Shown: piece after piece, positions 1,369 through 19,880 of the stretch | Layout: each line of letters opens with the position of its first letter | How positions within the stretch are numbered: position 1 is the stretch's first letter | DNA from: a virus | Lineage: Duplodnaviria > Heunggongvirae > Uroviricota > Caudoviricetes | Virus record (IMG/VR): IMGVR_UViG_2537562172_000002 | Span: 1-24,527 of that record | Direction: 5' to 3' (one strand) | Length of the DNA stretch: 24,527 nt | Made by a program: the position numbers and the translations under genes | The notes under the pieces: model-generated | Databases searched by the model: none | What the model saw: the letters and a program-made list of their open reading frames with translations, nothing else | Told to the model about the DNA's origin: nothing

Positions 1369-1444
<76 letters not shown>

Positions 1445-1458: not shown

Positions 1459-2622
1459 TTACACATCATTAGTACCTTCCTTATTTCTTGACTGGGACAA
1501 ATTTGGGACCGATGGGTTCAGAATTGAGTCTATTTGCCGTGCGTGTTCGGTAAGGTGATTAGGTGCGAGGTGAGCATATCGACGAACCATTTCGATAGAC
1601 TCCCAGCCTCCCATTTCCTGTAACACTGACAACGGGACTCCGGCTTGAACCAGCCAACTTGCCCAGGTGTGTCTCAAGTCGTGAAATCTGAAATCATCAA
1701 TACCTGCTCGTCTCAGCGCCGCTTTCCAGGCTGTGTTTGCGTCATACCGCATCTTCCTGACTGTTGGTGCTTTCGTTCCGTCTGGTTTGGTACAGCTTTC
1801 CTTATACACAAATACCCAACGGTGATGATTCCCGATTTGTTTTTTCAATACGCGACATGCAGTATCATTCAGCGCAACGCCAATTGCACGGTTTGATTTA
1901 CTCTCTTCCGGGTTTATCCATGCCACCCGGCGCTGCATGTCTATTTGTTGCCATTCAAGGTTGATGATGTTCGAGCGTCTTAAGCCTGTTGCAAGTGCAA
2001 ATTCAACAACAGACTTTAATGGCTCCGGACATTCATCAATCAGCCTTTGTGCTTCATGAGGCTCCAGCCAGCGGATCCGTTTATTCTTTGGTTGAGGCAC
2101 TTTAATAATTGGTGCCTTATCCAGCATTTTCCATTCACGCTCTGCAGCTCTTAGCAGGGCCTTTATAAATGAAAGATGCGTTGCCTTCGTTGCAACGGAC
2201 GCTGGTTTTGGCGTGTATTCTGGAACTGGTTTCCCTTTTTTTCTGCATGCTTCTGCCCTGAGTTTCCAGTTTTCCTCATGACGCCGGTTCGTCATTTTCT
2301 GCATTGCTGAATAAATTTTTGATTCAGTAATGTCTCTTAGTTGCATTCCTGCGAAATGTTGAAGCCAGAATCCGATCCGGCTTTTGTCATCGTCCAGTGA
2401 TTTTTTATGTGCTTTCTCTTCGAGCCACCTGATACACGCCTCCTCGAACGTCATATCAGGTATTTCACCAAGTTTGCTGACCCGCCATGCTTCAGCCTTT
2501 AGCTTGTCATGGAGCTCTGTCGCCTGCCTTTTGTCCTTTGTTCCAAGAGACTGTTTAAATCTTTTACCGTTCGGCAATGTGAAACTGGCGTACCATATTT
2601 CACCTCTGCGGAAGAGTGACAT
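1459..2622 (-). CDS. int: Tyrosine-type site-specific integrase, 387 aa
   Basis: C-terminal catalytic signature [11 protein letters not shown] ... VRRYAHL typical of tyrosine recombinases; RBS agagga upstream of the ATG; adjacent to tRNA. Confidence 0.9.
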
Positions 2623-3154: not shown

Positions 3155-3516
3155 TATGCTCCAGCCTCCGGTGCTTTTGGCATTACTGCCCAGTGAGTGA
3201 TATTGACGTTTTCAAGGTCCCCGACCTGAAATGTCCACTGCCATTCTCCGGTTTCTTTTTGTCCCCAGGTGTACCAGAGAGAACGCCAGCCAATCAGCCA
3301 GCCTTCTCCGTTAGCATCAAATAACAGAACACTTTCATTTGCTGGTGGCAGTTCAGCTGACACTGGTATTATTTTGTTTTCCAGTGCCGCACATTTAGCT
3401 TCAAGCGCGTCGAATTTACGTAACAGGTACTCAGCATTTGTTTCATTCACTTTCAGATCTCGCGGTACACATTTCCCGCGAAGAAACCCTTCCATTTCGA
3501 AAACATTCATGCGCAT
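3154..3516 (-). CDS. Hypothetical prophage early protein, 120 aa, Trp-rich C-terminus (YfdS-like by size and position)
   Basis: ORF with RBS cggag; overlaps neighbours by a few bases in the same operon. Confidence 0.6.
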   Translation of the reverse strand: MRMNVFEMEGFLRGKCVPRDLKVNETNAEYLLRKFDALEAKCAALENKIIPVSAELPPANESVLLFDANGEGWLIGWRSLWYTWGQKETGEWQWTFQVGDLENVNITHWAVMPKAPEAGA

Positions 3517-4170: not shown

Positions 4171-4995
4171 TCAGGCGGTGAAAGTACCAATAAAGGTTTC
4201 TACTTTGCTGTCTTTGAATTTCTCAACAAGCAGATCACGAAATTCGTTAGCCATTTCTTCCTGCACCGCTTCCAGCTGAATAATGCGCAGAACCAGTACA
4301 GGACGATCGCCAGTGATAATGCTGAGGCGTAATTTAAACGGACGTTCTTTCAGACCTTCAAACGGAACGCATTTAAATTCAAATGCCACTGGCATAATGT
4401 CTTTGGTCTTCGCTTCGACAGACTCCATCAGGGAGCGTTTGCCGCTGAAGTCATTATCTTCAAAATCAGCGGTCTGGTTTGCTTCAATCGTGATTTTACG
4501 GACTGCCGCAGCCGCTTTTGTTGCTTGAATGGCGTCACCATTAGCATCAAAGCCCACAAGGTAGTCGGCCCAGTCTTCGATCCATTCTGCCAGTGACTTC
4601 TGGGAGTTACGCTCGCCGTTAACAGACAACAGAGCAGAGAACGGTGCTGTCTTTTTCAGTTTGAGAGTGGCAGTGTTATCTGCGTGACCTGGTTCATCAA
4701 TAGTACCCAGGTTAAGCACACTGACGGCTCGCATATTATCGGCATCGATAAAGCAGCGGGTGCCTTCATCTGCAAGATCTTTAGAATAACGGGTAAAGTC
4801 ATCGATGCTGGCAGTGGAAAGCGCACCACGGAAACGGAAGCGATTTAAATTAAATTTTTCCAGATCATGAATGCGGAAATTCTCAGGCAATGCCACAGCA
4901 TCGGCACCAATCTTACTGATAATTTCATTAACACCCTGAGCAGAAATAAGGGCATGGATTTGATTAATTGCGGTTGCGTCTAAGTTCTGAGACAT
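4171..4995 (-). CDS. YfdQ-like prophage protein (DUF2303-type), 274 aa
   Basis: Long ORF with RBS gagga; sequence and size recall E. coli CPS-53 YfdQ; same operon order as yfdP-yfdQ-yfdR-yfdS-yfdT. Confidence 0.75.
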
Positions 4996-5423: not shown

Positions 5424-5833
5424 TTTGCTGCTCCTCATCATATCGACCCTGCAAGGTCGGTTGGTTTCTCCACAAAACAGAGAAGAACACCTGCGGTGGC
5501 AGCCGCCCGGATGGATTGGGTTATGAGCCCGTCGTCCGGTGATGCTCTTCTCTGTTTTGCAAAAAAGGACGGTACCAGCCGGAAGCAAGGGTACAAACTG
5601 GTACCGCCAGGACTACACACAGCATAAAGTTGTGGTGCCGGGTGCCTCCCGGTGCCTGGCGAAGGTTGCACACCAGGCGGGTGGGTATCCACAGAAGGTC
5701 GACTGTCAGCCTCAACCTTAACCCGCGTGCGCTGAGCCGCATTCACCACAACGCTAAGGATTCTCTCTGGTTGAAAATACTTAGCTGTTATGTGCCTGCT
5801 TTTAGCCACATCAGGCGAGGTGGACCTGGTTAT

Positions 5834-5879
5834 TCCCCAACAACAAGGATTCGGTTAATCTGGATATCCCCAACAACAA
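5834..5879. repeat. Two copies of the 13-bp direct repeat TCCCCAACAACAA (5834-5846 and 5867-5879), 33 bp apart
   Basis: Exact repeat seen in the sequence, immediately upstream of the plus-strand gene starting near 5894. Confidence 0.7.
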
Positions 5880-5893
5880 TAAGAGTATTCAAT

Positions 5894-6409
5894 GTGATCG
5901 CTGAATTAACGGCAGCAATGACGGCTATTCGTGAAACAGCCCAGATTGCAAAACTAATGAACGAGGCAAAAACTCAAGCTGAAGTAAATGCGGCTATTGG
6001 TGAGCTGAACTCAAAGCTTGCGTCTATTCAGCGCGAATGCGTGTCTCTCGTTGAACTGGTGGGCTCTTATCAAGAAATAAATGCTTCTCTCAAAGCTAAA
6101 ATTGCAGAATTCGAAAACTTTGAGGCTCAGACGGAAGGCTATATCCTTAACCAACTTGAGTCGGGTACTTTTGTATACTCGAAGGAGGTAATCGTGAACG
6201 GTGGCAGCATAACCATGCATCTTTGCCCAAAATGTTTTGGACAAAAGATAGTATCGATACTTCAACCATTCCCGGTTAGCGAAGATGAGCTTTTTCATAA
6301 AAGCAGGTGCCTCCACTGTGAAAATAAGTTTCTGATGAATAAAAATCCGGATTACGTATCGCCTCCATCCATTGAGGAGTTGTCCAGAAAACTTAACGGC
6401 AATCTGTAG
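5894..6409 (+). CDS. Coiled-coil / zinc-ribbon protein of unknown function (alternative start 5918)
   Basis: N-terminal Ala/Lys/Glu-rich helical region, then CPKC ... CLHC motif pairs; opposite orientation to the surrounding leftward operon; followed by its own terminator. Confidence 0.6.
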   Translation: MIAELTAAMTAIRETAQIAKLMNEAKTQAEVNAAIGELNSKLASIQRECVSLVELVGSYQEINASLKAKIAEFENFEAQTEGYILNQLESGTFVYSKEVIVNGGSITMHLCPKCFGQKIVSILQPFPVSEDELFHKSRCLHCENKFLMNKNPDYVSPPSIEELSRKLNGNL

Positions 6410-6447
6410 ATTACTACTGTTGTGGATATCCAGATTGCTAAAGAGCT

Positions 6448-6472
6448 AAGCGTCCTGTAGGGCGCTTTTTTG
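6448..6472 (+). terminator. Rho-independent terminator for the 5894-6409 gene
   Basis: Hairpin aagcgtcc-tgta-gggcgctt followed by a T-run. Confidence 0.6.
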
Positions 6473-6637
6473 TTGCTAACGAATCATCCTGGACTTCATA
6501 TGCCCCAGGCGGCTACTTCGTGGGCGTCCTGCCTGTTCGTTTTTGACATTTACTGACTGCTTACGACACATGCACCGTGTTGCAACCAGATTTTGTTGTA
6601 ATCCTGTAGTTGGTCTGGAACAAAAGATAAAATTAAA

Positions 6638-6674
6638 TTGCGAGATATGCAAGTGATATTTGCGAGGTATGCAA
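6638..6674. promoter_or_regulatory. Putative left operator: two 15-bp sites TTGCGAGATATGCAA and TTGCGAGGTATGCAA, 22 bp centre to centre
   Basis: Near-identical pseudo-palindromic sites (TTGC...GCAA) matching the site TTGCGTGATAAGCAA upstream of cro. Confidence 0.55.
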
Positions 6675-6687
6675 ATTTATAGGTAGT

Positions 6688-6708
6688 AAAAAGCCACCTT
6701 TCGGTGGC
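6688..6708 (-). terminator. Rho-independent terminator downstream of cI (minus strand)
   Basis: Hairpin gccacc-tttc-ggtggc with an adjacent A-run on the plus strand (U-run on the minus transcript). Confidence 0.55.
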
Positions 6709-6728
6709 CGATGGATGGGATATTGAGG

Positions 6729-7421
6729 TTAATTATGTCTCTTAAGGGTTTGCGACTGACTGATTAAGACCTTTCCAAAGACCATGAATCGGTGTTCGTT
6801 TTCGCTAGTAATTCCCCATTCACGGTAAATCTGGTTATCAGAAATCACCAGCAGTTTGTCAGGAATCATTTGAAGTCTTTTAACGTATATTTTGTCATCA
6901 AAACCAAAGACATATATACCATCACCATCAAACTGATTGATGCTGACATCAACGAAGATGAGATCTCCTGGCTCAATGGTTGGACACATACTGTCCCCAC
7001 GAACGTTGATAACTTTGATGTGATTGGCTGGTCGTCCGCCGAACATTGATACAGCATTATCAGTTCTGTATTCGATGGCATGAATCACATCAATGACATC
7101 ACCGCCCTGGATAAGGCCATTTCCCGCACTGGCACTGATATCCAGCATTTCAATACGGAACACATCCTTCACCTGCGCAACATCCTCATTATTACTGTTT
7201 TTATATACAGTATTACTTTTGTGGGCAGAGGTAAAGAGATCAGCAATATCAACACCTAAGCTCTTGGCAATATTACTCAGTGTTTGTTCGGTAAATTGTT
7301 TTTGCTTACCCGTTTCTAAGCGCGAGATGTTCGCCGCATCTACTCCTATTGCTTCAGCGAGATCGGCGATTTTCATGTTCTTCGCTTGGCGAAGTTGTCT
7401 GACTCGGTTTCCTATGTTCAT
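6729..7421 (-). CDS. cI: CI-like phage repressor: N-terminal HTH (XRE) plus C-terminal S24/LexA-like peptidase domain
   Basis: HTH MKIADLAEAIGVDAANISRLETG; S24 signature VRGDSMCPTIEPGDLIFVD; divergent from a cro-like gene. Confidence 0.9.
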   Translation of the reverse strand: MNIGNRVRQLRQAKNMKIADLAEAIGVDAANISRLETGKQKQFTEQTLSNIAKSLGVDIADLFTSAHKSNTVYKNSNNEDVAQVKDVFRIEMLDISASAGNGLIQGGDVIDVIHAIEYRTDNAVSMFGGRPANHIKVINVRGDSMCPTIEPGDLIFVDVSINQFDGDGIYVFGFDDKIYVKRLQMIPDKLLVISDNQIYREWGITSENEHRFMVFGKVLISQSQTLKRHN

Positions 7422-7518
7422 GCGTTTATTACATTTCTTTATTGCGTGATAAGCAAATCAACTTGCGCAAAATAATTGCGTGAAATAACATGCATAACGC
7501 GCAATATTTGGAGGGCAT
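7422..7518. promoter_or_regulatory. Right operator / divergent promoter region between cI and cro
   Basis: Operator-like site TTGCGTGATAAGCAA (7442-7456), self-complementary TTGCGCAA (7463-7470), further TTGCG/CGCAA half-sites; candidate -35 TTGCGC and -10 TAACAT; RBS ggaggg before cro. Confidence 0.6.
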
Positions 7519-7779
7519 ATGCAATCACCATTACGAAATGTGCGTAAGGCGCATGGTTTCACTTTGCAGCATGTTGCTGCGGGTGTTCAAGTCAATCCAG
7601 CGACGTTGAGTCGTATTGAGAGGCTGGAGCAGATTCCATCTATCGAGCTTGCAGAACGTTTAGCCAATTTTTTTAAGGGTGAAGTCAGCGAAATGCAGAT
7701 TCTTTATCCGGCACGTTTTCAATCTAGCCAAAACCAGAATGGGTTTAAACCACAGGAACAGGAGGTGAACCGTGGGTAA
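7519..7779 (+). CDS. cro: Cro-like HTH regulator, 86 aa
   Basis: HTH GFTLQHVAAGVQVNPATLSRIERLEQIPS; divergent from cI with intervening operators. Confidence 0.8.
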   Translation: MQSPLRNVRKAHGFTLQHVAAGVQVNPATLSRIERLEQIPSIELAERLANFFKGEVSEMQILYPARFQSSQNQNGFKPQEQEVNRG

Positions 7780-8329
7780 GCATCACTGGAAAGTAGAAAA
7801 ACAGCCTGAGTGGTACGTGAAAGCTGTCAGAAAAACTATCGCAGCGTTGCCGGGGGGTTACGCTGAAGCAGCTGACTGGCTGGATGTAACAGAGAACGCA
7901 TTATTTAACCGCCTTCGTGCCGATGGCGATCAGATTTTCCCGCTGGGATGGGCAATGATTTTGCAACGTGCTGGTGGAACTCACTTCATTGCTGACGCTG
8001 TGGCGCAGTCTGCAAATGGCGTCTTTGTGTCTCTTCCTGACGTCGAGGATGTGGACAACGCCGATATTAACCAGCGTCTGCTGGAAGTCATTGAACAGAT
8101 CGGCAGTTATTCAAAACAGATTCGTTCAGCAATCGAAGACGGTGTAGTGGAACCGCATGAGAAGACAGCAATTAACGACGAGCTGTATCTCTCAATTTCG
8201 AAGCTGCAGGAGCATGCAGCACTTGTCTACAAAATTTTTTGCATTTCAGAAAGTAATGACGCCCGCGAGTGTGCAGCTCCGGGCGTCGTGGCGTCGATTG
8301 CTTCTGGTTGTGGAGAAACTAACGCATGA
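7772..8329 (+). CDS. Putative CII-like phage regulatory protein, 185 aa (family assignment tentative)
   Basis: GTG start preceded by caggagg RBS; position directly after cro; sequence recalls CP76/CII-type regulators, not verified. Confidence 0.55.
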
Positions 8330-8684: not shown

Positions 8685-9090
8685 ATTAACCGGCTATGTA
8701 TGGGATGGTTGCGCTGCATCAGGCATGAAGTTATCCAGCGTGGCAATTATGGCCCGCCTGGCTGATTTCAGTAATGACGAAGGTGTGTGCTGGCCATCAA
8801 TTGAAACCATTGCCCGTCAGATTGGCGCGGGGATGAGTACCGTCAGAACGGCTATCGCACGGCTGGAAGCAGAAGGCTGGTTAACGCGTAAGGCGCGTCG
8901 CCAGGGTAACCGGATCCGCGATCTGGACAACTATAACAAGGCGCTGTTTGACGCCCTGACCCACGCGGGTGTGTGGGAAGACGACAGCCAGGTGAAAAGA
9001 ATGCTGGTGGAGTGGGGACCGGTTATCCCGGAAGGGAAGGTCGAGATCACTATCAGTAAGTACGAGAAAACGGCGGGTGCAGCCGCCTGA
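8674..9090 (+). CDS. HTH-domain protein resembling the N-terminal domain of phage replication-initiation proteins, 138 aa
   Basis: Winged-helix-like segment SIETIARQIGAGMSTVRTAIARLEAEGWL; position where lambdoid phages carry O/P. Confidence 0.65.
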   Translation: MSTKLTGYVWDGCAASGMKLSSVAIMARLADFSNDEGVCWPSIETIARQIGAGMSTVRTAIARLEAEGWLTRKARRQGNRIRDLDNYNKALFDALTHAGVWEDDSQVKRMLVEWGPVIPEGKVEITISKYEKTAGAAA

Positions 9091-9109
9091 TCAAGAGGAG
9101 AAACGAAGT

Positions 9110-9919
9110 ATGAATAATCTGATGGTCATTGATGGTATTGAAGTTCGTCGTGATGCTTATGGGCGTTACAGCCTGAACGATCTGCACAGGGCAGCCGGGG
9201 GAGAACAAAAAAACCGCCCGAAATACTGGCTCTCCAATAAGCAAACCTGTGAATTGATTGAACAACTTTTCACCGAGGGTGGAATTCCGCCTCTGGAACA
9301 AAATCAACCAGTTAGCGTCATTAATGGCGGAAATAACCAGGGGACGTATGTCTGCAAAGAACTGGTGTATGCCTATGCAATGTGGATCAGCCCGTCATTC
9401 CATCTGAAGGTGATCCGTACTTTCGATATGGTAACCAGCGCACCGGAAAAATTATCCGGGCAGGCTGCTGACAAGATGCAGGCTGGAGTGATTCTGCTGG
9501 ACTTTATGCGCAGGGAGTTAAACCTGTCTAACTCTTCAGTGCTTGGGGCCTGTCAGAAACTCCAGGAGGCTGTTGGCTTACCGAATCTGGCACCGCGCTA
9601 TGCCATTGATGCTCCTGCTGACGCGCCTGATGGCTCAAGTCGCCCGACACTGTCGCTGAGTGCACTGCTGAAACAGTATGGTATCCGCCTTACGGCTAAT
9701 CAGGCATATCACCAGATGGCGAAGCTGGGGATCGTCGAACAGCGCGAACGATACAGCCGTACAGCGATTAACAACATCAAAAAATTCTGGTCGCTGACGG
9801 CGAAAGGCTGCATGTTCGGCAAGAACATCACCAGTCCTGCAAATCCGCGCGAGACGCAGCCGCATTTCTTCGAATCCCGATTCCCTGAGCTGTTAAAGCT
9901 GCTCGATACCGTTCATTGA
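9110..9919 (+). CDS. KilA-N domain protein
   Basis: ATG with aagaggag RBS; N-terminus MNNLMVIDGIEVRRDAYGRYSLNDLHRAAG...KYWLSNKQTCELIEQ resembles the KilA-N fold consensus. Confidence 0.7.
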   Translation: MNNLMVIDGIEVRRDAYGRYSLNDLHRAAGGEQKNRPKYWLSNKQTCELIEQLFTEGGIPPLEQNQPVSVINGGNNQGTYVCKELVYAYAMWISPSFHLKVIRTFDMVTSAPEKLSGQAADKMQAGVILLDFMRRELNLSNSSVLGACQKLQEAVGLPNLAPRYAIDAPADAPDGSSRPTLSLSALLKQYGIRLTANQAYHQMAKLGIVEQRERYSRTAINNIKKFWSLTAKGCMFGKNITSPANPRETQPHFFESRFPELLKLLDTVH

Positions 9920-9920
9920 G

Positions 9921-10916
9921 GTGACCGTGAGAGCACTACTGACCCCTGAAATTGCCCCGCGTATGGGGATCGTATTGTTCAGGCCAGGTTCAGAGTTGAT
10001 GCCCCTGTTTATGCAGGGGCGTGTACTGCTGGAGCCTGAGCCGGAACGTTATTCATCTTTCGCCAGTGGTGCCGTTCCGGCGGCATCACAACCGCTGGCG
10101 GATGATCCTGCCGTTCGGGCCGTGTTCCGCAATGAGGCAGTGATCCGTCGTGCTGGTGGCGTGGAATGTCTTGAAAGCTGGTTACTTCGTGAAAAAGGCT
10201 GCCAGTGGCCTCATTCCAACTGGCACAGCGAGAACATGACCACAATGCGACACGCGCCTGGCGCAATCCGTCTGTGCTGGCACTGCGATAACCAACTGCG
10301 CGATCAGTTCACGGAACGGCTGGAATCAATGGCAACGGATAACTGTGCCCGCTGGGTGTTGTCTGTTGTGCGTCGGGATCTCGGTTTTGATGATAGTCAC
10401 GTTGTGACAATGCCGGAACTGTGCTGGTGGCTGGTTCGTAATGATCTGGCGGATGCCTTACCGGAAAGCGCAGCCCGTAAGGCACTGAGATTACCGAAGC
10501 CTGTTGTGCCGTCTGTCACCCGGGAAAGTGACCTTGTGCCTTCGGTTCCAGCCACCAGCATCATGCAGGATAAAGCGAAAAAGGTGCTGGCGCTGAAAGT
10601 GGAGCCGGAGTCGCCGGAGTCTTTTATGTTACGCCCCAAACGTCGCCGCTGGGTTAATGAAAAGTACACGCGCTGGGTTAAGACACAGCCGTGTGCATGT
10701 TGTGGAAAGCCTGCTGATGATCCCCACCACCTGATAGGCCACGGTCAGGGGGGAATGAGTACAAAAGCGCATGACCTCTTTGTGTTGCCTTTGTGCAGAA
10801 AGCATCACGACGAGCTGCATGCGGATACCGTGGCATTTGAAGAGAAGTATGGCTCCCAGCTGGAGCTGATATTTCGTTTTATCGACCGTGTGTTGGCAAT
10901 TGGTGTGCTAGCCTGA
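9921..10916 (+). CDS. Phage protein with C-terminal Cys/His-rich (HNH-like / DUF968-like) motif, 331 aa
   Basis: GTG start just after the previous stop; C-terminus CACCGKPADDPHHLIGHGQGG...LCRKHHDELH. Confidence 0.65.
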   Translation: MTVRALLTPEIAPRMGIVLFRPGSELMPLFMQGRVLLEPEPERYSSFASGAVPAASQPLADDPAVRAVFRNEAVIRRAGGVECLESWLLREKGCQWPHSNWHSENMTTMRHAPGAIRLCWHCDNQLRDQFTERLESMATDNCARWVLSVVRRDLGFDDSHVVTMPELCWWLVRNDLADALPESAARKALRLPKPVVPSVTRESDLVPSVPATSIMQDKAKKVLALKVEPESPESFMLRPKRRRWVNEKYTRWVKTQPCACCGKPADDPHHLIGHGQGGMSTKAHDLFVLPLCRKHHDELHADTVAFEEKYGSQLELIFRFIDRVLAIGVLA

Positions 10917-10933
10917 TTTGGTGGAGAAAGTTG

Positions 10934-11299
10934 ATGCGTGATATTCAGATGGTTCTGGAGCGTTGGGGGGCATGGGCGGCGAGTGATAGTTCAGGCGTTG
11001 ATTATTCACCTATAGCCGCTGGGTTTAAGGGACTTCTTCCCTATACAAGCAAGAAACGCTTGGCTTGTTCGGATAGTGATGCCTTAATTATTGAAGGTTG
11101 TCTTGCTCGTCTAAAGCAAAAAAGGCCGGACGAACATTCGCTTCTTGTTGCCCATTACCTATACGGTATCTCTAAAAGAAAGCTCGCCAAGGCTCGTAAA
11201 AAAGATGAGAAATTGATACGTATAGAAATACAGCTAGCCGAAGGATTTATTGATGGCTGCCTTTCCATGCTAGATCTAACATTAGATTTGGACGTTTAA
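10934..11299 (+). CDS. Q: Late-gene antitermination protein Q (QuuD-like)
   Basis: Begins MRDIQMVLERWGAWAA, as I recall for E. coli QuuD; ggag RBS 7 nt upstream; positioned before the late/lysis region. Confidence 0.85.
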   Translation: MRDIQMVLERWGAWAASDSSGVDYSPIAAGFKGLLPYTSKKRLACSDSDALIIEGCLARLKQKRPDEHSLLVAHYLYGISKRKLAKARKKDEKLIRIEIQLAEGFIDGCLSMLDLTLDLDV

Positions 11300-11300
11300 T

Positions 11301-11326
11301 AATACGCCCCTGCATGGGGCGTATTA
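11301..11326. terminator. Perfect 10-bp hairpin between the convergent Q and KAP genes, possibly a bidirectional terminator
   Basis: aatacgcccc-tgcat-ggggcgtatt followed by T-rich sequence, with A-rich sequence upstream. Confidence 0.6.
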
Positions 11327-11327
11327 T

Positions 11328-12659
11328 TTACTGGATGAATGACATTTGATTAATATATTTTATCAATAACTCTCTGGGTGTAGTACTCCAAAAATTTATG
11401 TGTTCATAATCAGTATAAACATTTGTGAATTTTTTAAGTTCTTCATCACTTTTAGGGGCAAATCGCTCATTAAGAGTAATACTGTCTTTAATTATTCCGA
11501 AGAATACAATCGATATTTCAGGGATTTGCGATCTTCTCTCATAAGAATAAGGTATTTCTTTTATGTTAAGCAGGTCTGCTAAATAAGATATAGATTCAGC
11601 GGTAATTTCTTGTTTTAGTTTTTCCTTGTTACCAAAGCAATGTATGAAGGCAGCTACGACAAAGATCATATTTATTAAAGGATCACTGCTTTTGTTCTCA
11701 TCGTCGTTTAACAGTTGGAAAATGTTAAGATTGCGTGAAAATGTTTGTGTTTCACGTAATGATAAGTTGGTTCGTTGAATTAAATCACGGATAAAGTAAC
11801 CTGATAATCTATTGATTTTATTCAATAAGCTTGTTTTTTCTACAAGGTAATCCCAATATATAACAGAGGCTTTACATACGTTGTGACCATTTATCAAACA
11901 TGTATCTGGAAGCGTGATGGTATATTTTATAAACTTGTCAAGATACTTTTGTGAGTTAATGCTATAACCATAAATATGATTTATAGATGCTTTTAATTGT
12001 TCTGTGTTTGTAACTAAAATAAAAAAGACATTATTGATGTCAAAAATGTGTTTTATTGTTTCAATGACATTTGTTGAAAAACTCGGCTTACATCGGTCTA
12101 ATTCATCAATTATAATTACGATTTTTTGATTTTTTGATATGCTTTCGATGCAGGATTTAAGTGAATTTATGTTTTTCTCTGAGTCCATATGGTCTTCAAG
12201 CAAATTTTCAATAGTCCCATCTATTGCTGCATTGCTTGCTTTCTTCATCGCATCTTGGAATTCTTCGGCAACTTCACTAGCCTCCTGTCGTAAAAACCAA
12301 CCTGCACCAGCTTTTAGTACCGTTTTTAAACCAAAGCGAATTGCAGGAAGAGATCTCTTAATGAAGTGTTGTTTTTCTTCCTCAGGCAAAATGCTGGCAA
12401 TTGCAGAGGTTATGAGAAGTAATGGAGATTCTGCATGATCCCCTTTAAAGGCATCAATATAAACAACTTTAGATTCAGTTTCTTGCTCAATAATGAGATT
12501 TTTCAGTTTGATACTAAATTCTGTTTTCCCTGTTCCCCATGCGCCGTCTATTACCAGTGGTGAAATGTCTGCCTCTGGTTTTAGCAACTTGATGATATTT
12601 TCAGCGATGTTTCTTCGTTGGAACTCGTCACGTTCAGTGAAAGATAGTGTATCTAACAT
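11328..12659 (-). CDS. KAP-family P-loop NTPase (PifA-like), 443 aa
   Basis: Walker A GAWGTGKT (aa 39-46) and Walker B VIIIDELD (aa 181-188); visibly AT-rich compared with flanking phage genes; opposite orientation to Q and the late genes. Confidence 0.85.
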   Translation of the reverse strand: MLDTLSFTERDEFQRRNIAENIIKLLKPEADISPLVIDGAWGTGKTEFSIKLKNLIIEQETESKVVYIDAFKGDHAESPLLLITSAIASILPEEEKQHFIKRSLPAIRFGLKTVLKAGAGWFLRQEASEVAEEFQDAMKKASNAAIDGTIENLLEDHMDSEKNINSLKSCIESISKNQKIVIIIDELDRCKPSFSTNVIETIKHIFDINNVFFILVTNTEQLKASINHIYGYSINSQKYLDKFIKYTITLPDTCLINGHNVCKASVIYWDYLVEKTSLLNKINRLSGYFIRDLIQRTNLSLRETQTFSRNLNIFQLLNDDENKSSDPLINMIFVVAAFIHCFGNKEKLKQEITAESISYLADLLNIKEIPYSYERRSQIPEISIVFFGIIKDSITLNERFAPKSDEELKKFTNVYTDYEHINFWSTTPRELLIKYINQMSFIQ

Positions 12660-12781
12660 AATATAAACCTATTAACTCCTACAGTAAAAAACGAATAATA
12701 CGACTTTGGGATTAAAAATCATTAACGCGGTCCGCAAAAATTCTTGTAATCTGTTAAGAGTGTTACTTCGCCACACAGCTT

Positions 12782-12808
12782 AAACCCGCTGTCGAGCGGG
12801 TTTTTTTG
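12782..12808 (+). terminator. Plus-strand intrinsic terminator (candidate tR'-like element)
   Basis: Hairpin aaacccgct-gtcg-agcgggttt followed by a run of seven T; no plus-strand ORF immediately upstream. Confidence 0.55.
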
Positions 12809-12930
12809 TACCTGTAAACCTGGTGCAGTACGGTAAACACGCTGGTGGTAGTGAATACTGATTTTTTATCTTGCTGGCTTTTTAGACAAGAGTTATTGGT
12901 ATGTCATGTTAACCATGAAGGTAAAAAGAC

Positions 12931-13125
12931 ATGCTAAAACAGCAAGATATGACAGAAACGGCGAAAGTGGTTTTTAATGAATTAAGCATCGAACCGGCAA
13001 CAGTCGGGGAGATTGCACAAAACACATACCTTTCACGCGAACGCTGTCAGTTAATACTGACCCAGTTGGTTATGGCGGGGCTGGCAGATTACCAGTTCGG
13101 CTGTTACAGACGCCTTCAGCAATGA
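12931..13125 (+). CDS. Small hypothetical protein, 64 aa, possible winged-helix
   Basis: ATG with weak gaaggt RBS; helical-looking translation; function unknown. Confidence 0.4.
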   Translation: MLKQQDMTETAKVVFNELSIEPATVGEIAQNTYLSRERCQLILTQLVMAGLADYQFGCYRRLQQ

Positions 13126-13274
13126 AGGGCTTTTAATTTGTGAAAATGGGCGGCTGGTGGGTGTTGGTAGCACCTGCCAGCCATTCGCTCATGCTTACTG
13201 GTCACAAGCGAACCACGGCCCACTGCTTTAGCGCAAAAGCAGAGTGAGCCTACCAGAGTTACGCTTACTGATCC

Positions 13275-14327
13275 ATGAAAAATACTGTAAAAATAAACAG
13301 TGTTGATTTAATCAACGCTGATTGCCTGCATTTTATTCAGTCCCTGCCTGATGATTCCATTGACCTGATTGTTACCGATCCGCCGTACTTCAAGGTGAAA
13401 CCCAACGGCTGGGACAATCAGTGGAAAGGGGACGAAGATTACCTGAAGTGGCTGGACCACTGTCTGGCTCAGTTCTGGCGGGTGCTGAAACCTGCCGGAA
13501 GCCTTTACCTGTTCTGTGGACATCGCCTCGCATCTGATATCGAGATCATGATGCGTGAACGTTTCAACGTTCTTAACCATATTATCTGGGCGAAGCCGTC
13601 CGGACGATGGAACGGGTGTAATAAAGAAAGTCTGCGCGCATATTTTCCCGCAACAGAACGCGTTCTGTTTGCTGAACATTACCAGGGGCCATATCGCGGC
13701 AAAAGTGACGGCTATGCGGCAAAAGAAAGTCAACTCAAACAGCACATAATGGCACCGCTGATTTCGTATTTCAGGGATGCTCGTGCCGAACTGGGTATAA
13801 CGGCAAAACAGATTGCCGAAGCCACTGGTAAGAAAAACATGGTTTCCCACTGGTTTGGTGCCAGTCAGTGGCAGTTGCCGAATGAGGCTGACTACCGGAA
13901 GTTGCAGGCACTGTTTTCCCGTATAGCGGCAGAGAAGTTTCAGGAACAACAACTGGAACAACCACACCACCAGCTGGTGGCATCTTATGATTCACTGAAT
14001 CGCAAATATTCTGAATTGCTGGATGAGTTTAAAACTCTCCGGCGCTATTTCTCCGTATCAGTTTCCGTGCCTTATACCGACGTCTGGACGCATAAACCCG
14101 TTCAGTTCTACCCGGGTAAACATCCGTGTGAGAAGCCTGCGGATATGCTCCGGCAAATAATCAATGCCAGTAGTCGACCAGGCGATCTGGTTGCTGATTT
14201 TTTTATGGGATCCGGTTCCACAATAAAAGCAGCAATGGCGCTGGGGCGTCGGGCCTTAGGTGTTGAGCTTGAGTCAGAGCGGTTTAACCAGACGGTGAAA
14301 GAGATAAACGAGCTGGTGGGGAAATAA
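13275..14327 (+). CDS. DNA methyltransferase, beta-class N6-adenine/N4-cytosine type, 350 aa
   Basis: Motif IV DPPY (IVTDPPYF) near the N-terminus and motif I FFMGSGST near the C-terminus; no adjacent restriction endonuclease gene. Confidence 0.9.
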
Positions 14328-14333
14328 TCTGGT

Positions 14334-14356
14334 GGCCACGTCAGGTGGCCTTTTTA
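14334..14356 (+). terminator. Hairpin plus T-run between the methylase and the holin
   Basis: ggccac-gtcag-gtggcc followed by ttttta. Confidence 0.5.
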
Positions 14357-14394
14357 TTTCCATTACACAGCACCCGCATCTGCGAGGTGGGGTT

Positions 14395-14610
14395 ATGAAA
14401 TCAATGGATAAGTTAACAACAGGTGTCGCCTATGGCACCTCTGCAGGCAGTGCTGGCTACTGGTTTTTACAGTTGCTCGATAAAGTCACGCCATCACAGT
14501 GGGCGGCAATAGGTGTGCTGGGTAGTCTGGTATTTGGCCTGCTGACGTACCTGACAAACCTTTATTTCAAGATTAAAGAAGATAAGCGTAAGGCTGCGAG
14601 AGGTGAATAA
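14395..14610 (+). CDS. S: Class II holin of the phage-21 S21 pinholin type, with dual-start motif MKSM
   Basis: [71 protein letters not shown] closely resembles S21 as I recall it; two transmembrane segments; RBS gaggtgggg. Confidence 0.85.
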
Positions 14611-15107
14611 TGTCGCCATCATTACGCAAGGCTGTTGCTGCTGCTATTGGTGGTGGGGCTGTTGCCATAGCGTCTGTGCTCATCACTGGTCCGAGTGGTA
14701 ACGATGGTCTGGAAGGTGTCAGTTACATACCATACAAAGATATTGTTGGCGTATGGACTGTATGTTACGGACACACTGGAAAAGACATCATGCTCGGTAA
14801 AACGTATACCGAAGCAGAATGCAAAGCTCTCCTGAATAAAGACCTTGCCACGGTCGCCAGACAAATTAACCCGTACATCAAAGTCGATATACCGGAAACA
14901 ACGCGCGGCGCTCTTTACTCGTTCGTTTACAACGTTGGTGCTGGAAATTTCAGAACATCGACGCTTCTTCGCAAAATAAACCAGGGTGATATTAAAGGCG
15001 CATGTGATCAGCTACGGCGCTGGACATACGCTGGCGGTAATCAATGGAAAGGACTGATGACTCGCCGTGAGATTGAGCGTGAAGTCTGTTTGTGGGGGAA
15101 ACAATGA
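14610..15107 (+). CDS. R: SAR endolysin (T4-lysozyme-like muramidase with N-terminal signal-arrest-release segment)
   Basis: Gly/Ala-rich N-terminal segment [20 protein letters not shown] followed by lysozyme catalytic region (E...D...CYGHTG); start overlaps holin stop (TAATG). Confidence 0.9.
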
Positions 15108-15562
15108 GCAGAGTAACCGCGATTATCTCCGCTCTGGTTATCTGCATCATCGTCTGCCTGTCATTGGCTGTTAATCATTACCGTGATAACGCAATCGCCT
15201 ACAAAGAGCAGCGCGATAACAAGGCCAGTGAACTGGAGAAGGCGAACGCCACCATCGCTGACATGCAGAAGCGTCAACGTGATGTAGCAGAACTCGACGC
15301 CAGATACACAAAGGAGCTTGCTGATGCTAACGCGACTATCGAAAGTCTACGTGCTGATGTTTCTGTTGGGCGTAAGCGCCTGCAAGTCGCCGCCACCTGT
15401 GCAAAGTCAACGACCGGAGCCAGCGGCATGGGCAATGGAGAAAGCCCAGGACTTACAGCAGATGCTGAACTCAATTATTACCGTCTCCGAAGTGGAATCG
15501 ACAAGATAACCGCGCAGGTTAACTACTTGCAGGAGTACATCAGGACGCAGTGCTTAAAATAA
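15104..15562 (+). CDS. Rz: Rz i-spanin
   Basis: N-terminal transmembrane anchor [18 protein letters not shown] then coiled-coil periplasmic domain; ATG overlaps endolysin stop (ATGA). Confidence 0.85.
15324..15509 (+). CDS. Rz1: Rz1 o-spanin lipoprotein, embedded in the +1 frame of Rz
   Basis: aaggag RBS 7 nt upstream of ATG; signal peptide with lipobox (FLLGVSAC) followed by Pro-rich sequence [13 protein letters not shown]. Confidence 0.75.
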
Positions 15563-15602
15563 TTTTAATTTCACTGAAATTTAACAAGTGACTTTCAGGA
15601 AA

Positions 15603-15631
15603 ATGCCTCGCAGATGCGGGGCATTTTTGTA
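15603..15631 (+). terminator. Rho-independent terminator after the lysis cassette
   Basis: Hairpin atgcctcgca-ga-tgcggggcat followed by ttttt. Confidence 0.6.
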
Positions 15632-15920
15632 CAGGTATTTCACCGCGCACCGCAGCGCACTCAACCACGTCGAACCAAACCCTTTGGAATGAGCCTTTGA
15701 GTAGTCAGTTAGTGCTGGTGAGCCTTGACGGGCTGATCTCCTATGCAGCAAAGGTTCATCTCAAAGTAAGGCGAACGCTATGACAAACCAAGATTCTATA
15801 GACCTATCTGATCTTCGTGGAATGGTCAGTTTTCCAGACAAAAGGTAATCACCATAGTCGTATGGCTATGAATCTTGTTGCTGCAGATAAGCATTTTGTG
15901 ATTGAAGTGGTCAAATCTCT

Positions 15921-15978
15921 CAAATGCAGTAAAATGCAGTGCGCTATAATTCAGTAACGGAGGGAGTAAGGAGAAGTC
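15921..15978 (+). promoter_or_regulatory. Candidate promoter and RBS for the 15979 gene
   Basis: Perfect -10 TATAAT at 15945-15950, preceded by the tandem motif ATGCAGT(aaa)ATGCAGT; RBS ggaggg/aaggag before the ATG; -35 is weak. Confidence 0.45.
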
Positions 15979-16599
15979 ATGAAAGATCAAGATGTTAGGT
16001 TCGCGGTGCATCATAAGCTTTTGAAAGAATCGCATTTAGATCCTGACTGCCTTGTGGTCGATGAATTTTCCATATCCCTTGGCGCCAGTAGAGCAGACAT
16101 TGCTGTAATAAATGGTGTTATACACGGGTACGAGCTCAAAAGTGAATATGACTCTTTGGAGCGTTTGCCTCTTCAAATCAAGCATTATTCTTCTGTAATG
16201 GACAAGGTTACTCTTGTCGTAGCTGAGAAACATCTTGAGGGAGCATTAAAGTTAATCCCAGGTTGGTGGGGCGTTAAAACGGTTTCTGTTGGGCCAAAAG
16301 GCGCCATTCTTATAAAGCACATGCGTGGAGAAAAGCTTAATCGAAACCATAACTCATTGATGCTCGCTCAATTGCTTTGGAAAGATGAATGTATCGACGT
16401 ACTTGAACGATGGGGCTATTCCAAAGGAATCAAAAGCAAGCCCCGATTTGAGTTATGGAATATTATTGCGGAAAATATTCCAATAGCGAATCTCAGGCTT
16501 GAAGTCAGAACAGCCTTAAAGAAACGCGTAGGCTGGAAAGTTAAGGCTTGGCAGGCTGAGTCTGCGCCAACCAATAAAGCTGTCTCACGACTAACGTAA
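15979..16599 (+). CDS. PD-(D/E)xK nuclease-fold protein, 206 aa (recalls the sce7726-type family; not verified)
   Basis: Candidate catalytic residues E29, D40 and E52-x-K54 (VVDEF ... RADIAVINGVIHGYELK); own promoter-like signals; 3' end overlaps the convergent partner gene. Confidence 0.75.
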   Translation: MKDQDVRFAVHHKLLKESHLDPDCLVVDEFSISLGASRADIAVINGVIHGYELKSEYDSLERLPLQIKHYSSVMDKVTLVVAEKHLEGALKLIPGWWGVKTVSVGPKGAILIKHMRGEKLNRNHNSLMLAQLLWKDECIDVLERWGYSKGIKSKPRFELWNIIAENIPIANLRLEVRTALKKRVGWKVKAWQAESAPTNKAVSRLT

Positions 16600-17608
16600 T
16601 ATGGTGCGTATGTGCAACTTTACGCCATTCTTTAGAGCCGCCAGATTTGTTAGCGCCTAATGATCTTTGGTAAATGTAATCATCCCCCCAACTAAATTTG
16701 GAGCCAAAGACGTGATACTCTGGCGAACTAACAAGGGTAGTACATAAGTTTTTAGTTTGGCCCCATCCATTTCCTTTAACTGCGGTACCTTTTACAAAGA
16801 TCCATGAGGTATCGTTCGAATATCTCACTGAGACATACTGAGACATGAAGCGTGGGTCTACGCTCGTAATGGTAGAGCTAGCGGTGGGATAATCACTAAA
16901 ACTTGGCGTTCTTCCATTGCTAAAATTCTGTACTACATACATCCAAAGATCGTATTCATGGCGCGGAATATGATGAACTTGATGTTGCGGTATCCCTGCC
17001 TGTGATGCAGGGTATGCGGTTGAAGATAAAATCAAGTTTCTCCACGGAGCTTGGCCTGATAATGTGTTGACCATGCTTAATGCTTGTTGTTTTAAACTAT
17101 CAGTTGCGTTTTGAATATCTCCAAAATCAATGATTACATCAATTAAACTAGGATGAATATTTAAGTGGTTAACCAGACTTGTGAATTGGTGCCATGTCTG
17201 GGGGGTGATAGATATAGCGAGCCCATTGATTAAGTTGCGTTGAACAGCATGTATATAGTTTGTTGAATATGCGGGAGAGACAACAGGGATAATTTCCTTA
17301 CCATTTACTCTAGCATCTTGGATACACATATCTAGAGGATGATGGCGGCTCGAACCATGTTTATCTAAATATTTAACATCCAGCAAAACAGGACGATTGG
17401 CTTTCCAGGATGCCGCAAGGTTAATACCGAAGTCAGATAAGTAAGAACTCAAACTCTTCTTGTAGCATTCGTTTTCATAATCCCAGTCTATGTCTGGAAT
17501 GGTAATGATCGGAGTAAAACCAGAGAGCGTAGTTTGATCTAAAAGCATCAGAGATTCATATTCAGCAGGCTTCCATTTCAGCTGTGGGTAATATTGATGT
17601 TGACTCAT
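16541..17608 (-). CDS. Uncharacterised 355-aa protein, partner of the nuclease-like gene (recalls the sce7725 / beta-protein family; not verified)
   Basis: aaggag RBS 5 nt upstream of the ATG; -10-like TATACT and a palindrome upstream; no motif I can assign by eye. Confidence 0.75.
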   Translation of the reverse strand: MSQHQYYPQLKWKPAEYESLMLLDQTTLSGFTPIITIPDIDWDYENECYKKSLSSYLSDFGINLAASWKANRPVLLDVKYLDKHGSSRHHPLDMCIQDARVNGKEIIPVVSPAYSTNYIHAVQRNLINGLAISITPQTWHQFTSLVNHLNIHPSLIDVIIDFGDIQNATDSLKQQALSMVNTLSGQAPWRNLILSSTAYPASQAGIPQHQVHHIPRHEYDLWMYVVQNFSNGRTPSFSDYPTASSTITSVDPRFMSQYVSVRYSNDTSWIFVKGTAVKGNGWGQTKNLCTTLVSSPEYHVFGSKFSWGDDYIYQRSLGANKSGGSKEWRKVAHTHHITLVVRQLYWLAQTQPAKP

Positions 17609-17651
17609 TAAAACTCCTTAAAATCTTTACTTATCCTAAGTATAGTGTTAT

Positions 17652-17664
17652 GGCGTAACGCCAA
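17652..17664. promoter_or_regulatory. Palindrome TGGCGTaACGCCA in the promoter region of the 355-aa gene
   Basis: 6-bp inverted arms around a central A, lying between candidate -35 and -10 elements of the minus-strand gene. Confidence 0.45.
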
Positions 17665-17799
17665 TTGTTTTTATACACTTGAAAACATTGGGAAAAGTTG
17701 AGCTATATCTAAATTTACAAAATTGGATGTTATAGAAATCGAGGTTTCAACTAGGCATGGAACTGCAAAATTTTTAATGCCTGCACGCGAAAGTCGTTG

Positions 17800-18020
17800 G
17801 CGGGTCCTTTCCGGCGATCCGACAGGTTACGGGGCGGCGACCTCGCGGGTTTTCGCTATTTATGAAAATTTTCCGGTTTAAGGCGTTTCCGTTCTTCTTC
17901 GTCGTAACTTAATGTTTTTATTTAAAATACCCCCTGAAAAGAAAGGAAACGACAGGTGCTGAAAACGAGCTTTTGGGCCTTTGTCGTTTCCTTTCTCTGT
18001 TTTTGGCCGTGGAATGAACA
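17800..18020 (+). other. Lambda-type cos site (cosQ/cosN/cosB); 12-nt cohesive-end sequence GGGCGGCGACCT at 17832-17843
   Basis: ...GATCCGACAGGTTACG immediately followed by GGGCGGCGACCTCGCGGGTTTTCGCTATTTATGAAAATTTTCCGG..., matching the joined right and left ends of phage lambda as I recall them. Confidence 0.85.
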
Positions 18021-18566
18021 ATGGAAGTCAACAAAAAGCAGCTGGCTGACATTTTCGGTGCGAGTATCCGTACCATTCAGAACTGGCAGGAACAGGGAAT
18101 GCCCGTTCTGCGAGGCGGTGGCAAGGGTAATGAGGTGCTTTATGACTCTGCCGCCGTCATAAAATGGTATGCCGAAAGGGATGCTGAAATTGAGAACGAA
18201 AAGCTGCGCCGGGAGGTTGAAGAACTGCGGCAGGCCAGCGAGGCAGATCTCCAGCCAGGGACTATTGAGTACGAACGCCATCGACTTACGCGTGCGCAGG
18301 CCGACGCACAGGAACTGAAGAATGCCAGAGACTCCGCTGAAGTGGTGGAAACCGCATTCTGTACTTTCGTGTTGTCGCGGATCGCAGGTGAAATTGCCAG
18401 TATTCTCGACGGGATCCCCCTGTCGGTGCAGCGGCGTTTTCCGGAACTGGAAAACCGACATGTTGATTTCCTGAAACGGGATATCATCAAAGCCATGAAC
18501 AAAGCAGCCGCGCTGGATGAACTGATACCGGGGTTGCTGAGTGAATATATCGAACAGTCAGGTTAA
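18021..18566 (+). CDS. nu1: Terminase small subunit Nu1, 181 aa
   Basis: MEVNKKQLADIFGASIRTIQNWQEQGMPVLRGGGKGNEVLYDSAAVIKWYAERDAEIENEKLRR... is near-identical to lambda Nu1 over its whole length. Confidence 0.95.
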   Translation: MEVNKKQLADIFGASIRTIQNWQEQGMPVLRGGGKGNEVLYDSAAVIKWYAERDAEIENEKLRREVEELRQASEADLQPGTIEYERHRLTRAQADAQELKNARDSAEVVETAFCTFVLSRIAGEIASILDGIPLSVQRRFPELENRHVDFLKRDIIKAMNKAAALDELIPGLLSEYIEQSG

Positions 18567-19810: not shown

Positions 19811-19831
19811 AATATTTATAACCCCAATAAA

Positions 19832-19857
19832 GGGCGTCAGGAATGACGCCTTTTTTA
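19832..19857 (+). terminator. Rho-independent terminator upstream of lom
   Basis: Hairpin ggcgtca-ggaa-tgacgcc followed by tttttt. Confidence 0.6.
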
Positions 19858-19880
19858 TTGCAGAAAAGCGAGAGGTAATT

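Follow-up and report, generated by a model that had tools for sequence, protein, structure and literature searches.

What does a lone gene do inside the leftward early operon of a prophage when it is read against that operon, and how would the prophage keep it in check? The question is raised by a plus-strand open reading frame (ORF) in IMG/VR virus record IMGVR_UViG_2537562172_000002, a member of the Caudoviricetes, of which positions 1 to 24,527 were analysed; this whole stretch of 24,527 nucleotides is called the window below. An initial annotation had described the ORF as encoding a helical N-terminal segment and two CxxC pairs, noted direct repeats before it and a terminator after it, and interpreted it as a moron-type exclusion or regulatory gene lying where lambda carries rexAB and sieB. 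We found that its product is most likely, judging from sequence comparison and the predicted fold, a divergent defence protein of the Rip1 family, and that its leader is homologous to the element that precedes sieB in phages lambda and P22 and that, on its other strand in P22, encodes the antisense RNA sas. We consider it probable that the ORF encodes a divergent antiphage protein of the Rip1 family and is expressed from a moron cassette of the sieB type, which is found in antisense orientation a short way downstream of pL. The exclusion half of the initial interpretation is thus strengthened by the Rip1 homology, whereas the regulatory half found no support.

The gene product and the Rip1 family

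The ORF exists as initially annotated, and of the two start codons then offered, the GTG at 5894 is the real one, since an AAGAG Shine-Dalgarno sequence lies 8 nt upstream of it, the starts of the homologues coincide with it, and the Prokaryotic Genome Annotation Pipeline (PGAP) calls the corresponding 516-nt coding sequence in E. coli EC28 and EDL933. Full-length homologues are mostly 171 aa long and begin with MIAEL at this position, with ATG in place of GTG in Klebsiella and Edwardsiella. A large protein search returned 123 homologues, all unnamed proteins, from Escherichia, Salmonella, Citrobacter, Klebsiella, Enterobacter, Edwardsiella, Arsenophonus and other genera, and conservation reaches down to 40-45% identity with invariant functional residues. 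The protein matches the PHROGs family phrog_1244, whose function is unknown (E = 9e-60), and searches of Pfam, NCBIfam and PADLOC (2023) returned only sub-threshold coiled-coil and zinc-ribbon noise.

A profile built from 36 homologues and compared with the PDB identified chain L of entry 9oox, named ring interacting pore 1 (Rip1; E = 5.7e-20), with residues 5-152 of the query (170 profile positions) aligned to residues 15-160 of the chain; the single sequence matched 9oox Rip1 at E = 2.7e-7 with both CxxC pairs in register. The title of this entry is that of HK446 Rip1 in complex with the small terminase of phage T6. The AlphaFold2 (AF2) model of the window protein (predicted local distance difference test score, pLDDT, 90.6) has helices at residues 3-23 and 28-79, in agreement with the helical segment noticed initially, followed by a beta-rich C-terminal domain. 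In a Foldseek comparison with the PDB, its only significant matches were 9oox chains L and M (probability 1.00, 28% identity); chain M was matched at E = 8e-7, with a target-normalised template modelling (TM) score of 0.72 and a root-mean-square deviation of 3.5 Å over 120 columns, and the next match had E = 0.18. Profile comparison and structure prediction, both of which the initial annotation had suggested as checks, therefore each identified Rip1. Furthermore, tblastn matched, at E about 1e-11, the genes that lie between those for terminase in the Pseudomonas phages DMS3, JBD30, MP38 and D3112 and, at E = 3e-13, HK620 hkaP, HK630 and HK629, hhalign against JBD30_030 gave 99.2%, and an exhaustive profile search collected 2761 clusters at 50% identity with E ≤ 1e-3, nearly all of them of 145-180 aa.

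The two CxxC pairs are CPKC (residues 111-114) and CLHC (residues 139-142). In an alignment of close homologues, C111, C114, C139 and C142 are invariant in 36 of 36 sequences, and the same four cysteines are invariant family-wide, including in HK446 Rip1, HK620 HkaP and JBD30_030; the family-wide alignment also keeps Y83, Y95 and a SILQ motif. In contrast to this homology with Rip1, none was detected with SieB, as a phmmer search with lambda SieB missed the window protein and every rip1-like cargo among the matches listed.

In its passages on Rip1, PMC13434031 (citing Patel et al. 2026 Nature 651:1060) presents it as a prophage protein that is harmless alone and has homologues that are widespread in Proteobacteria and mostly prophage-borne. 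According to the same passages, phages that escape it carry mutations in the portal or the small terminase, cryo-electron microscopy shows 12 Rip1 monomers surrounding an 11-mer ring of small terminase, the C-terminal half of Rip1 touches the ring and an amphipathic helix makes up the N-terminal part, and liposomes leak dye in the presence of the complex, with holes being seen in cells (PMC13434031).

The leader and a predicted promoter

Two exact 13-bp repeats with a spacing of 33 bp had been reported upstream of the ORF, and TCCCCAACAACAA does occur exactly twice in the window, at that distance. A shuffle test that tolerated two mismatches anywhere in the window is uninformative alone (23 of 100 shuffles gave two or more matches), and by hand arithmetic about 0.02 pairs of exact 13-mers within 60 bp would be expected in 24.5 kb. 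The repeats are not a product of chance, because both the pair and its spacing of 33-34 bp are kept in distant phages. The initial annotation did not notice that the conserved element reaches upstream to 5794. The repeats are part of a conserved leader of about 105 nt that is common to lambda and P22 sieB, HK620 hkaP and HK446 rip1 and that aligns column by column among them; among distant homologues, the 160 nt upstream of the gene are much better conserved than the proteins. Its upstream end is formed by a conserved block, which is unique in the window (0 occurrences expected by chance) and was found in lambda, P22, HK620, HK446, SfII, SfV and at least 120 IMG/VR contigs. Given that this leader is homologous to the sieB/sas element, the repeats of the window represent its allele of the sas/sieB leader; the repeat reads CCCCAACAAC in the clade of the window, CCCCAACAGC in Edwardsiella and ACCCCTACAG in HK446 and HK620. 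No leader element was found in the upstream sequences of the Pseudomonas rip1 genes that we compared.

In the P22 record, a sieB promoter (GATAAACT) is annotated, and the RNA starts immediately before the second repeat. Positional alignment with this promoter suggests a −10 sequence at the corresponding place in the window, and the likeness to the P22 promoter suggests that the region of repeat 1 may provide the −35 of the cargo promoter on the plus strand. Transcription is predicted by the same analogy to start at about 5866-5868, which would leave a 27-nt 5′ untranslated region (UTR) that opens with repeat 2. The conserved block was itself considered as a promoter (−35 TTnACC, with an extended −10 TGGTATnCT in the short-leader variants described below), and this was set aside because the N of TATNCT covaries in a hairpin stem and the annotation of P22 puts the sieB promoter and RNA start farther downstream. 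The block was also compared with a boxA/nut-like site and with a terminator, and it fits either poorly.

A predicted sas-like antisense RNA

In the parts of PMC12197685 and PMC7067206 that concern it, sas is described as an antisense RNA that lets P22 escape its own SieB. The sequence of P22 sas RNA from infected cells, determined by RNA-seq, is printed in Table 2 of PMC13397905, and we found it to be the exact reverse complement of the P22 leader; it begins just within the sieB start codon, spans the two repeats and includes the block, which matches the 3′ end of the RNA. By position and sequence, positions 5783-5898 of the minus strand are the predicted counterpart of P22 sas in the window.

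Operator-like TTGC-N7-GCAA palindromes occur five times in the window compared with 1.17 expected, and by their resemblance and placement they mark OL and OR of this immunity type. As the OL operators lie to the right of the cassette, pL should fire leftward and cross the rip1-like gene in antisense, which confirms the initial view of a gene that sits inside the leftward early operon and opposes it. Hexamers read by eye suggest a pL on the minus strand with −35 TTGCAT, −10 TATCTT and a start near 6617. From a pL immediately to the right of the cassette, leftward early transcription would be expected to yield a sas-like RNA directed against rip1.

The structure of this RNA was drawn up manually from 28 distinct two-repeat leaders in a curated alignment, in minus-strand sense, and comprises stem-loop 2, in which the complement of repeat 1 supplies the 5′ arm and the GGGG loop, a GCCUG/CAGGC hairpin and a possible CCAC/GUGG helix. 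Over the whole structure, 93.1% of the cells of the alignment hold standard pairs, compared with 34-47% when the partners are slid by one to three columns; six pairs change on both sides, and none of 500 shuffles reached the observed values. The proportion of paired cells is 87.6% in helix 1, that of stem-loop 2, where both sides change in 5 of 11 pairs. The stem contains 49 G·U cells and only 17 A·C cells, and G·U pairs would be mismatches on the plus strand; together with the covariation, this bias implies that the folded molecule is the minus-strand RNA. The block offers one compensatory change, CCGC/GCGG in Edwardsiella, and is otherwise invariant and hence uninformative on pairing. Applied to uncurated MAFFT alignments of all leaders, RNAalifold returned the invariant hairpin of the block and nothing else, as the variable hairpins were misaligned. 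No Rfam match to the leader was found in the window or in P22, and Rfam has no sas family.

A second feature that the initial annotation missed is an imperfect inverted repeat of 26 nt whose arms flank the ORF precisely. The core, AATCTGGATATCC, is kept in the EDL933, Salmonella, Citrobacter and Klebsiella cassettes and is absent from HK446 and HK620. The arms could pair across 528 nt in the pL transcript; alternatively, the 5′ and 3′ UTRs of the mRNA could pair with each other, in which case the 3′ UTR would mimic the antisense RNA. The hairpin terminator that had been noted after the ORF is found as described, and hairpins of a similar kind follow the gene in the cassettes of Salmonella, Citrobacter and Klebsiella, whereas that of EDL933 has none.

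Genomic contexts and the breadth of cargo

In every locus examined, the rip1-like gene stands as one unit, in antisense to the phage operon next to it. In SfV-like prophages of E. coli, Citrobacter and Klebsiella, it lies next to cI; one Salmonella prophage has it between cro and the replication genes, and in a Rac-like prophage of E. coli EDL933 (O157:H7) it occupies the sieB position. In HK446 and HK620 it is found between cIII and N, and in JBD30 between the terminase genes. The EDL933 location and the shared lambda/P22 leader support the early analogy with the rexAB/sieB slot of lambda. By megablast, the flanks of the cassette (5600-5823 and about 6480-6545) are common to SfII, SfIV, SfV and ST64B while the middle is replaced, and other E. 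coli strains have an ECs1072-family gene or a different ORF at the same slot; on these comparisons, the slot beside cI and pL is a cargo hotspot. The cassette is present at 80% coverage or more in 686 of 5426 complete E. coli genomes, a frequency that argues against intrinsic toxicity, and it occurs with 99% identity in PhiR29 and PhiR49, inducible phages of ECOR13. In an Edwardsiella prophage (L016/L017, 4962-6279), the rip1-like gene is followed by two same-strand genes of unknown role (228 and 175 aa) before N, a three-gene stretch that may represent a more extensive antisense island of defence genes.

Scanning IMG/VR for the pattern of the block gave, together with the loci already in hand, at least 89 distinct leaders. 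Two-repeat leaders precede at least 15 rip1-like cargoes, at least 9 sieB-like cargoes (recognised by phmmer with lambda SieB) and at least 8 others, and among the matches listed all 15 rip1-like cargoes use the two-repeat leader. A short leader, which precedes at least 41 cargoes, has the same block followed by GGTAT, one hairpin with the conserved loop AGTTCTCACACAA, and an end at the Shine-Dalgarno sequence; its stems covary, as in TACTGG/CCAGTA, TGCTGG/CCAGCA and TTCTTGG/CCAAGAA. The cargoes of short leaders are unrelated small ORFs, several of them with CxxC motifs. For both leader types taken together, the cargoes that are neither rip1-like nor sieB-like belong to at least 25 families of 59-163 aa.

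This breadth leads us to a wider proposal, for which we claim no more than tentative confidence, namely that the sas-type leader is a portable "antidote socket" into which lambdoid phages place unrelated defence or exclusion cargo. The element would consist of the conserved block and GGGG-loop hairpins, read as an antisense RNA from the phage's own early operon, and its cargo would include SieB, two Rip1 clades and ECs1072-family proteins, with at least 20 small-protein families behind the short one-hairpin version. Phages with the same allele would silence the resident copy and escape, and in the clade of the window the inverted repeat would form a long-range duplex in the pL transcript that releases or regulates the antisense RNA. 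If true, the arrangement would make defence specific to non-kin phages. In three IMG/VR records (L042, L110 and L037), the block and the first repeat are kept, a CCCCC...GGGGG hairpin replaces the second repeat and no ORF follows; these leaders look like empty sockets.

A possible mechanism and the points against it

In the working that we propose, the window gene would be transcribed in a lysogen at a low level from its own weak promoter, whose −35 would overlap repeat 1 and whose −10 would lie at about 5854-5861, with a start at about 5867 and an end at the terminator (6448-6473). The Rip1-like protein would remain idle until an infecting phage makes ring-shaped packaging proteins, either small terminase or portal. 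The C-terminal four-cysteine domain would then dock around the ring, and the assembled N-terminal amphipathic helices would breach the inner membrane, the infection being aborted before progeny mature. Leftward transcription from the prophage's own pL, or from that of an incoming phage with the same cassette, would cross the cassette and produce the sas-like antisense RNA, whose pairing with the mRNA, from the CCCC-rich 5′ UTR and the Shine-Dalgarno sequence to the start codon, would turn Rip1 synthesis off. Through the direct repeat, this RNA would have two copies of the sequence that can pair with the CCCC-rich 5′ terminus of the mRNA, and one copy would be exposed in a GGGG loop. Such a shut-off could be an escape route for kin phages, as sas is for P22 with regard to sieB.

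Several observations weigh against this account. On the side of the RNA, stem-loop 1, which lies opposite the Shine-Dalgarno sequence, is clear in HK446 and P22 and not clear in the clade of the window, and the sas-like RNA of the window as a whole folds no better than shuffled sequences (z = +0.45); the z-score of the lambda version is unremarkable too. Within the sas-like RNA of the window, support reaches stem-loop 2 and the block only. P22 sas may be either a processed pL transcript or the product of a separate promoter. It redirects translation towards Esc, an internal product, and no Esc-like internal start is evident in the rip1-like gene. A generic sigma-70 scan of 5500-7600 found no promoter above thresholds, and the transcription start is assigned by analogy only. 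On the side of the protein, identity to the characterised Rip1 proteins is only 27-30%, and N-terminal amphipathicity is modest, as the top 18-residue segment (residues 7-24/8-25) has a hydrophobic moment (muH) of 0.44, although it lies in the same place as that of HK446 Rip1, which has a similarly modest 0.42 at residues 7-24. The antiphage activity and the trigger specificity of the phrog_1244 clade are extrapolated from these distant relatives, and the Rip1 mechanism is drawn from passages of a review and of a meeting report and from a PDB title. Finally, in this particular host, where terminase and head genes are missing, self-protection is unneeded.

Alternative explanations

The low identity just mentioned is also an argument for a protein with Rip1 ancestry and fold that acts as an exclusion or abortive-infection factor in some other way, for instance on a different phage target or as a packaging decoy or inhibitor that forms no pore. 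The value for HK446 Rip1 is only 27-28%, the region past residue 150 and the loop between the CxxC pairs vary among clades, and the annotators of HK620 guessed "superinfection exclusion" for its homologue from position only. We nevertheless think such a departure quite unlikely, as the homology is full-length, the N-terminal helices, the beta domain and all four cysteines are kept, and the characterised Rip1 proteins of Pseudomonas and E. coli phages, which are about 32-34% identical to each other, yet share a mechanism according to the passages on Rip1 cited above. The two CxxC pairs, which form a zinc-ribbon-like knuckle, could instead suggest a nucleic-acid-binding regulator of the prophage, as could weak sub-threshold NCBIfam matches to RNA polymerase subunit P and to the ECs_2282 CxxC family, but these matches fall far under the cut-offs, no helix-turn-helix or other DNA-binding Pfam domain was found in the protein, and its only significant matches in sequence and fold are to Rip1, which makes a zinc-ribbon regulator very improbable. 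It is harder still to believe that the ORF is silent and that the region matters solely as antisense sequence in the pL transcript. The generic promoter scan would be in keeping with silence, yet the protein is conserved down to the identities given above with its functional residues invariant, its family comprises thousands of clusters, and a homologue has a solved structure and a phenotype.

A different question is whether the repeats and the block act as DNA rather than as RNA, that is, as sites for a repressor, an activator or a recombinase. The block is almost invariant, as is typical of protein recognition, and it marks the left edge of the swapped cargo modules, where it could be a recombination boundary; repeat 1 overlaps the putative −35 and repeat 2 the putative +1, so a regulator could act there. 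We regard this as unlikely, since the P22 counterpart was detected as a discrete RNA in infected cells (PMC13397905), and since the stem formed by repeat 1 changes its sequence yet keeps its pairing, with many G·U pairs that only the minus-strand RNA can form, and neither would be expected of a duplex DNA site. The two readings of the repeats are compatible and not exclusive, and protein binding to the repeats, which the initial annotation had suggested testing, appears less likely than their being parts of the antisense RNA, the promoter and the 5′ UTR.

The prophage and its other features

The left part of a prophage fills the window. A tRNA gene (1369-1441, plus strand; Rfam match above threshold) marks the integration site and adjoins the integrase gene (1459-2622, minus strand), and the early region resembles that of the SfV, SfII and CPS-53 group of lambdoid phages (yfdP-yfdQ-yfdR-yfdT). 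No terminase, portal or head genes were seen in 8700-24527. An ORF at 18776-19810 joins the N-terminus of tail protein L to the C-terminus of tip protein J, and tail-fibre and fibre-assembly genes occupy 20539-24527. The prophage that carries the rip1-like gene looks defective, and given the loss of head and terminase genes, the gene, if active, would be purely a bacterial defence in this host. The coordinates of the cassette and of neighbouring features are collected in Table 1.

Several further observations concern this prophage. Candidate accessory or defence cargo includes genes for a KAP-family P-loop nucleoside triphosphatase and a "Beta protein" (PF14350), both on the minus strand and opposing their neighbours, and for a DNA methylase on the plus strand. 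An IS009 RNA was matched above the Rfam threshold at 24286-24484 (plus strand), within the region of the tail-fibre assembly genes. At 5559-5782 on the minus strand, the prophage small RNA (sRNA) STnc100, which a 2026 preprint relates to the PasD sRNAs, was matched over the full model length but below the Rfam gathering threshold (40.3 bits compared with 47; E = 5.5e-7). This stretch begins at most about 10 nt from the 3′ end of the sas-like element, in the flank common to SfII, SfV and ST64B, and the "frameshifted hypothetical protein" that PGAP places over it in EC28 may really be an STnc100-like RNA.

Table 1. Coordinates of the rip1-like cassette, its leader and related features (positions in the window unless another record is named)
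Feature	Position	Strand	Remarks
yfdQ-like DUF2303 gene	4171-4995	−	
yfdP-like gene	end near 5061	−	
Predicted sas-like antisense RNA	5783-5898	−	covers the rip1-like start codon, Shine-Dalgarno sequence, 5′ UTR, both repeats and block
Conserved block GCCTG(T)CTTTTnnCCACnTCAGGCnnGGTGG	5794-5823	−	predicted 3′-terminal domain of the sas-like RNA: GCCUG/CAGGC hairpin, possible CCAC/GUGG pseudoknot helix
Stem-loop 2 of the sas-like RNA	5825-5850	−	GTTATT... pairs with the first repeat; GGGG tetraloop on the minus strand
Direct repeat 1 TCCCCAACAACAA	5834-5846	+	counterpart ACCCCTACAG in lambda, P22 and HK446
Predicted −10 GTTAATCT	5854-5861	+	by positional alignment with the P22 sieB promoter GATAAACT
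Inverted repeat, left arm	5857-5882		26 nt, imperfect; core AATCTGGATATCC
Direct repeat 2 TCCCCAACAACAA	5867-5879	+	predicted first bases of the rip1-like mRNA; predicted target of the sas-like RNA
Shine-Dalgarno AAGAG	5881-5885	+	8 nt before the GTG; purine-rich equivalents in homologous leaders
rip1-like gene	5894 (GTG)-6409	+	171 aa; stop TAG at 6407-6409
Inverted repeat, right arm	6411-6436		in the 3′ UTR; 85% complementary to the left arm
Intrinsic terminator AAGCGTCC-TGTA-GGGCGCTT, then TTTTTT	6448-6473	+	8-bp G+C-rich stem, UGUA loop, U6
OL-type operators TTGCGAGATATGCAA, TTGCGAGGTATGCAA	6638-6652, 6660-6674	−	form TTGCGAG-N-TATGCAA; between the cI terminator and the cassette
cI terminator	6692-6709	−	
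cI, S24/helix-turn-helix repressor	6729-7421	−	
OR-type operator TTGCGTGATAAGCAA	7442-7456		in the cI-cro gap; resembles the OL-type operators
cro	7519-7779	+	
cII-like gene	7772-8329	+	
Possible accessory or defence cargo	11328-12659, 13275-14327, 16541-17608	−, +, −	
Short leader, examples in other records	SfII (L002) 3195-3263; SfV (L003) 3195-3270		also IMG/VR L021-L140 (e.g. L107, L109, L029)

Meaning and novelty

We found no earlier description of the coupling of Rip1 with sas or of the breadth of cargo behind this leader, and both may be new. The family that the gene joins as a new member dates from 2026, and its leader is that of an antisense system described in 1993, so that the sas/sieB switch is now linked with a recent pore-forming defence. 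The link suggests a way in which a prophage that encodes a sensor of packaging rings escapes self-killing, and one in which related phages could circumvent it. The divergent enterobacterial Rip1 clade is present in about one in eight complete E. coli genomes, including that of O157:H7 EDL933; thus, a likely defence gene is added to a very common class of cryptic prophages, which bears on phage host range and on phage therapy. The alignment of leaders also gives the first covariation-supported structure for part of sas, an RNA that has had no Rfam family so far.

Comparison with known systems

Lambda RexAB and BstA of Salmonella phage BTP1 share with the system proposed here a location beside cI, expression in the lysogen and an abortive-infection-type outcome, and RexB, like Rip1, acts on the membrane. 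They differ from the window gene in that there is no relationship of sequence or fold, and rexAB is co-transcribed with cI, whereas the window gene is convergent with it.

Much closer are the Rip1 proteins themselves, HK446 gp037 and those of the Mu-like phages of Pseudomonas aeruginosa (JBD30_030 and its DMS3 counterpart, and D3112 orf25). They have in common with the window protein a length of about 165-171 aa, a helical and modestly amphipathic N-terminal half, a beta-rich C-terminal domain with four invariant cysteines, full-length homology and a matching fold, and in each case a lone gene of temperate phages opposes the surrounding operon; in HK446, it also has a sas-type leader as in the window. 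In contrast, the window protein is only 27-30% identical to them and belongs to a separate clade, phrog_1244, that is found in Enterobacterales only. In the SfV/CPS-53-like prophage of the window, which has no N, its gene directly separates cI/OL-pL from the remainder of the early-left operon, whereas the HK446 gene follows N and the Pseudomonas genes lie between terminase genes, and the window cassette has the additional 26-nt inverted repeat around the ORF.

For the leader, the relevant precedent is the sieB-esc-sas switch, which was reportedly described by Ranade and Poteete in 1993 (Genes Dev 7:1498). The sieB-esc-sas locus of P22 and sieB of lambda have the same block, the same arrangement of two repeats 33-34 bp apart, Shine-Dalgarno sequence and start codon, the same orientation against pL and a predicted antisense RNA that covers the start codon and the 5′ UTR, and the rip1-like cassette of EDL933 even fills the sieB position of a Rac-like prophage. 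The differences lie in the cargo, as the window protein is unrelated to SieB and no internal start of the Esc kind is apparent in its gene, and in the repeat, which reads CCCCAACAAC in the window and CCCCTACAG in P22 and lambda. Since the repeats differ in sequence, RNA pairing would be allele-specific.

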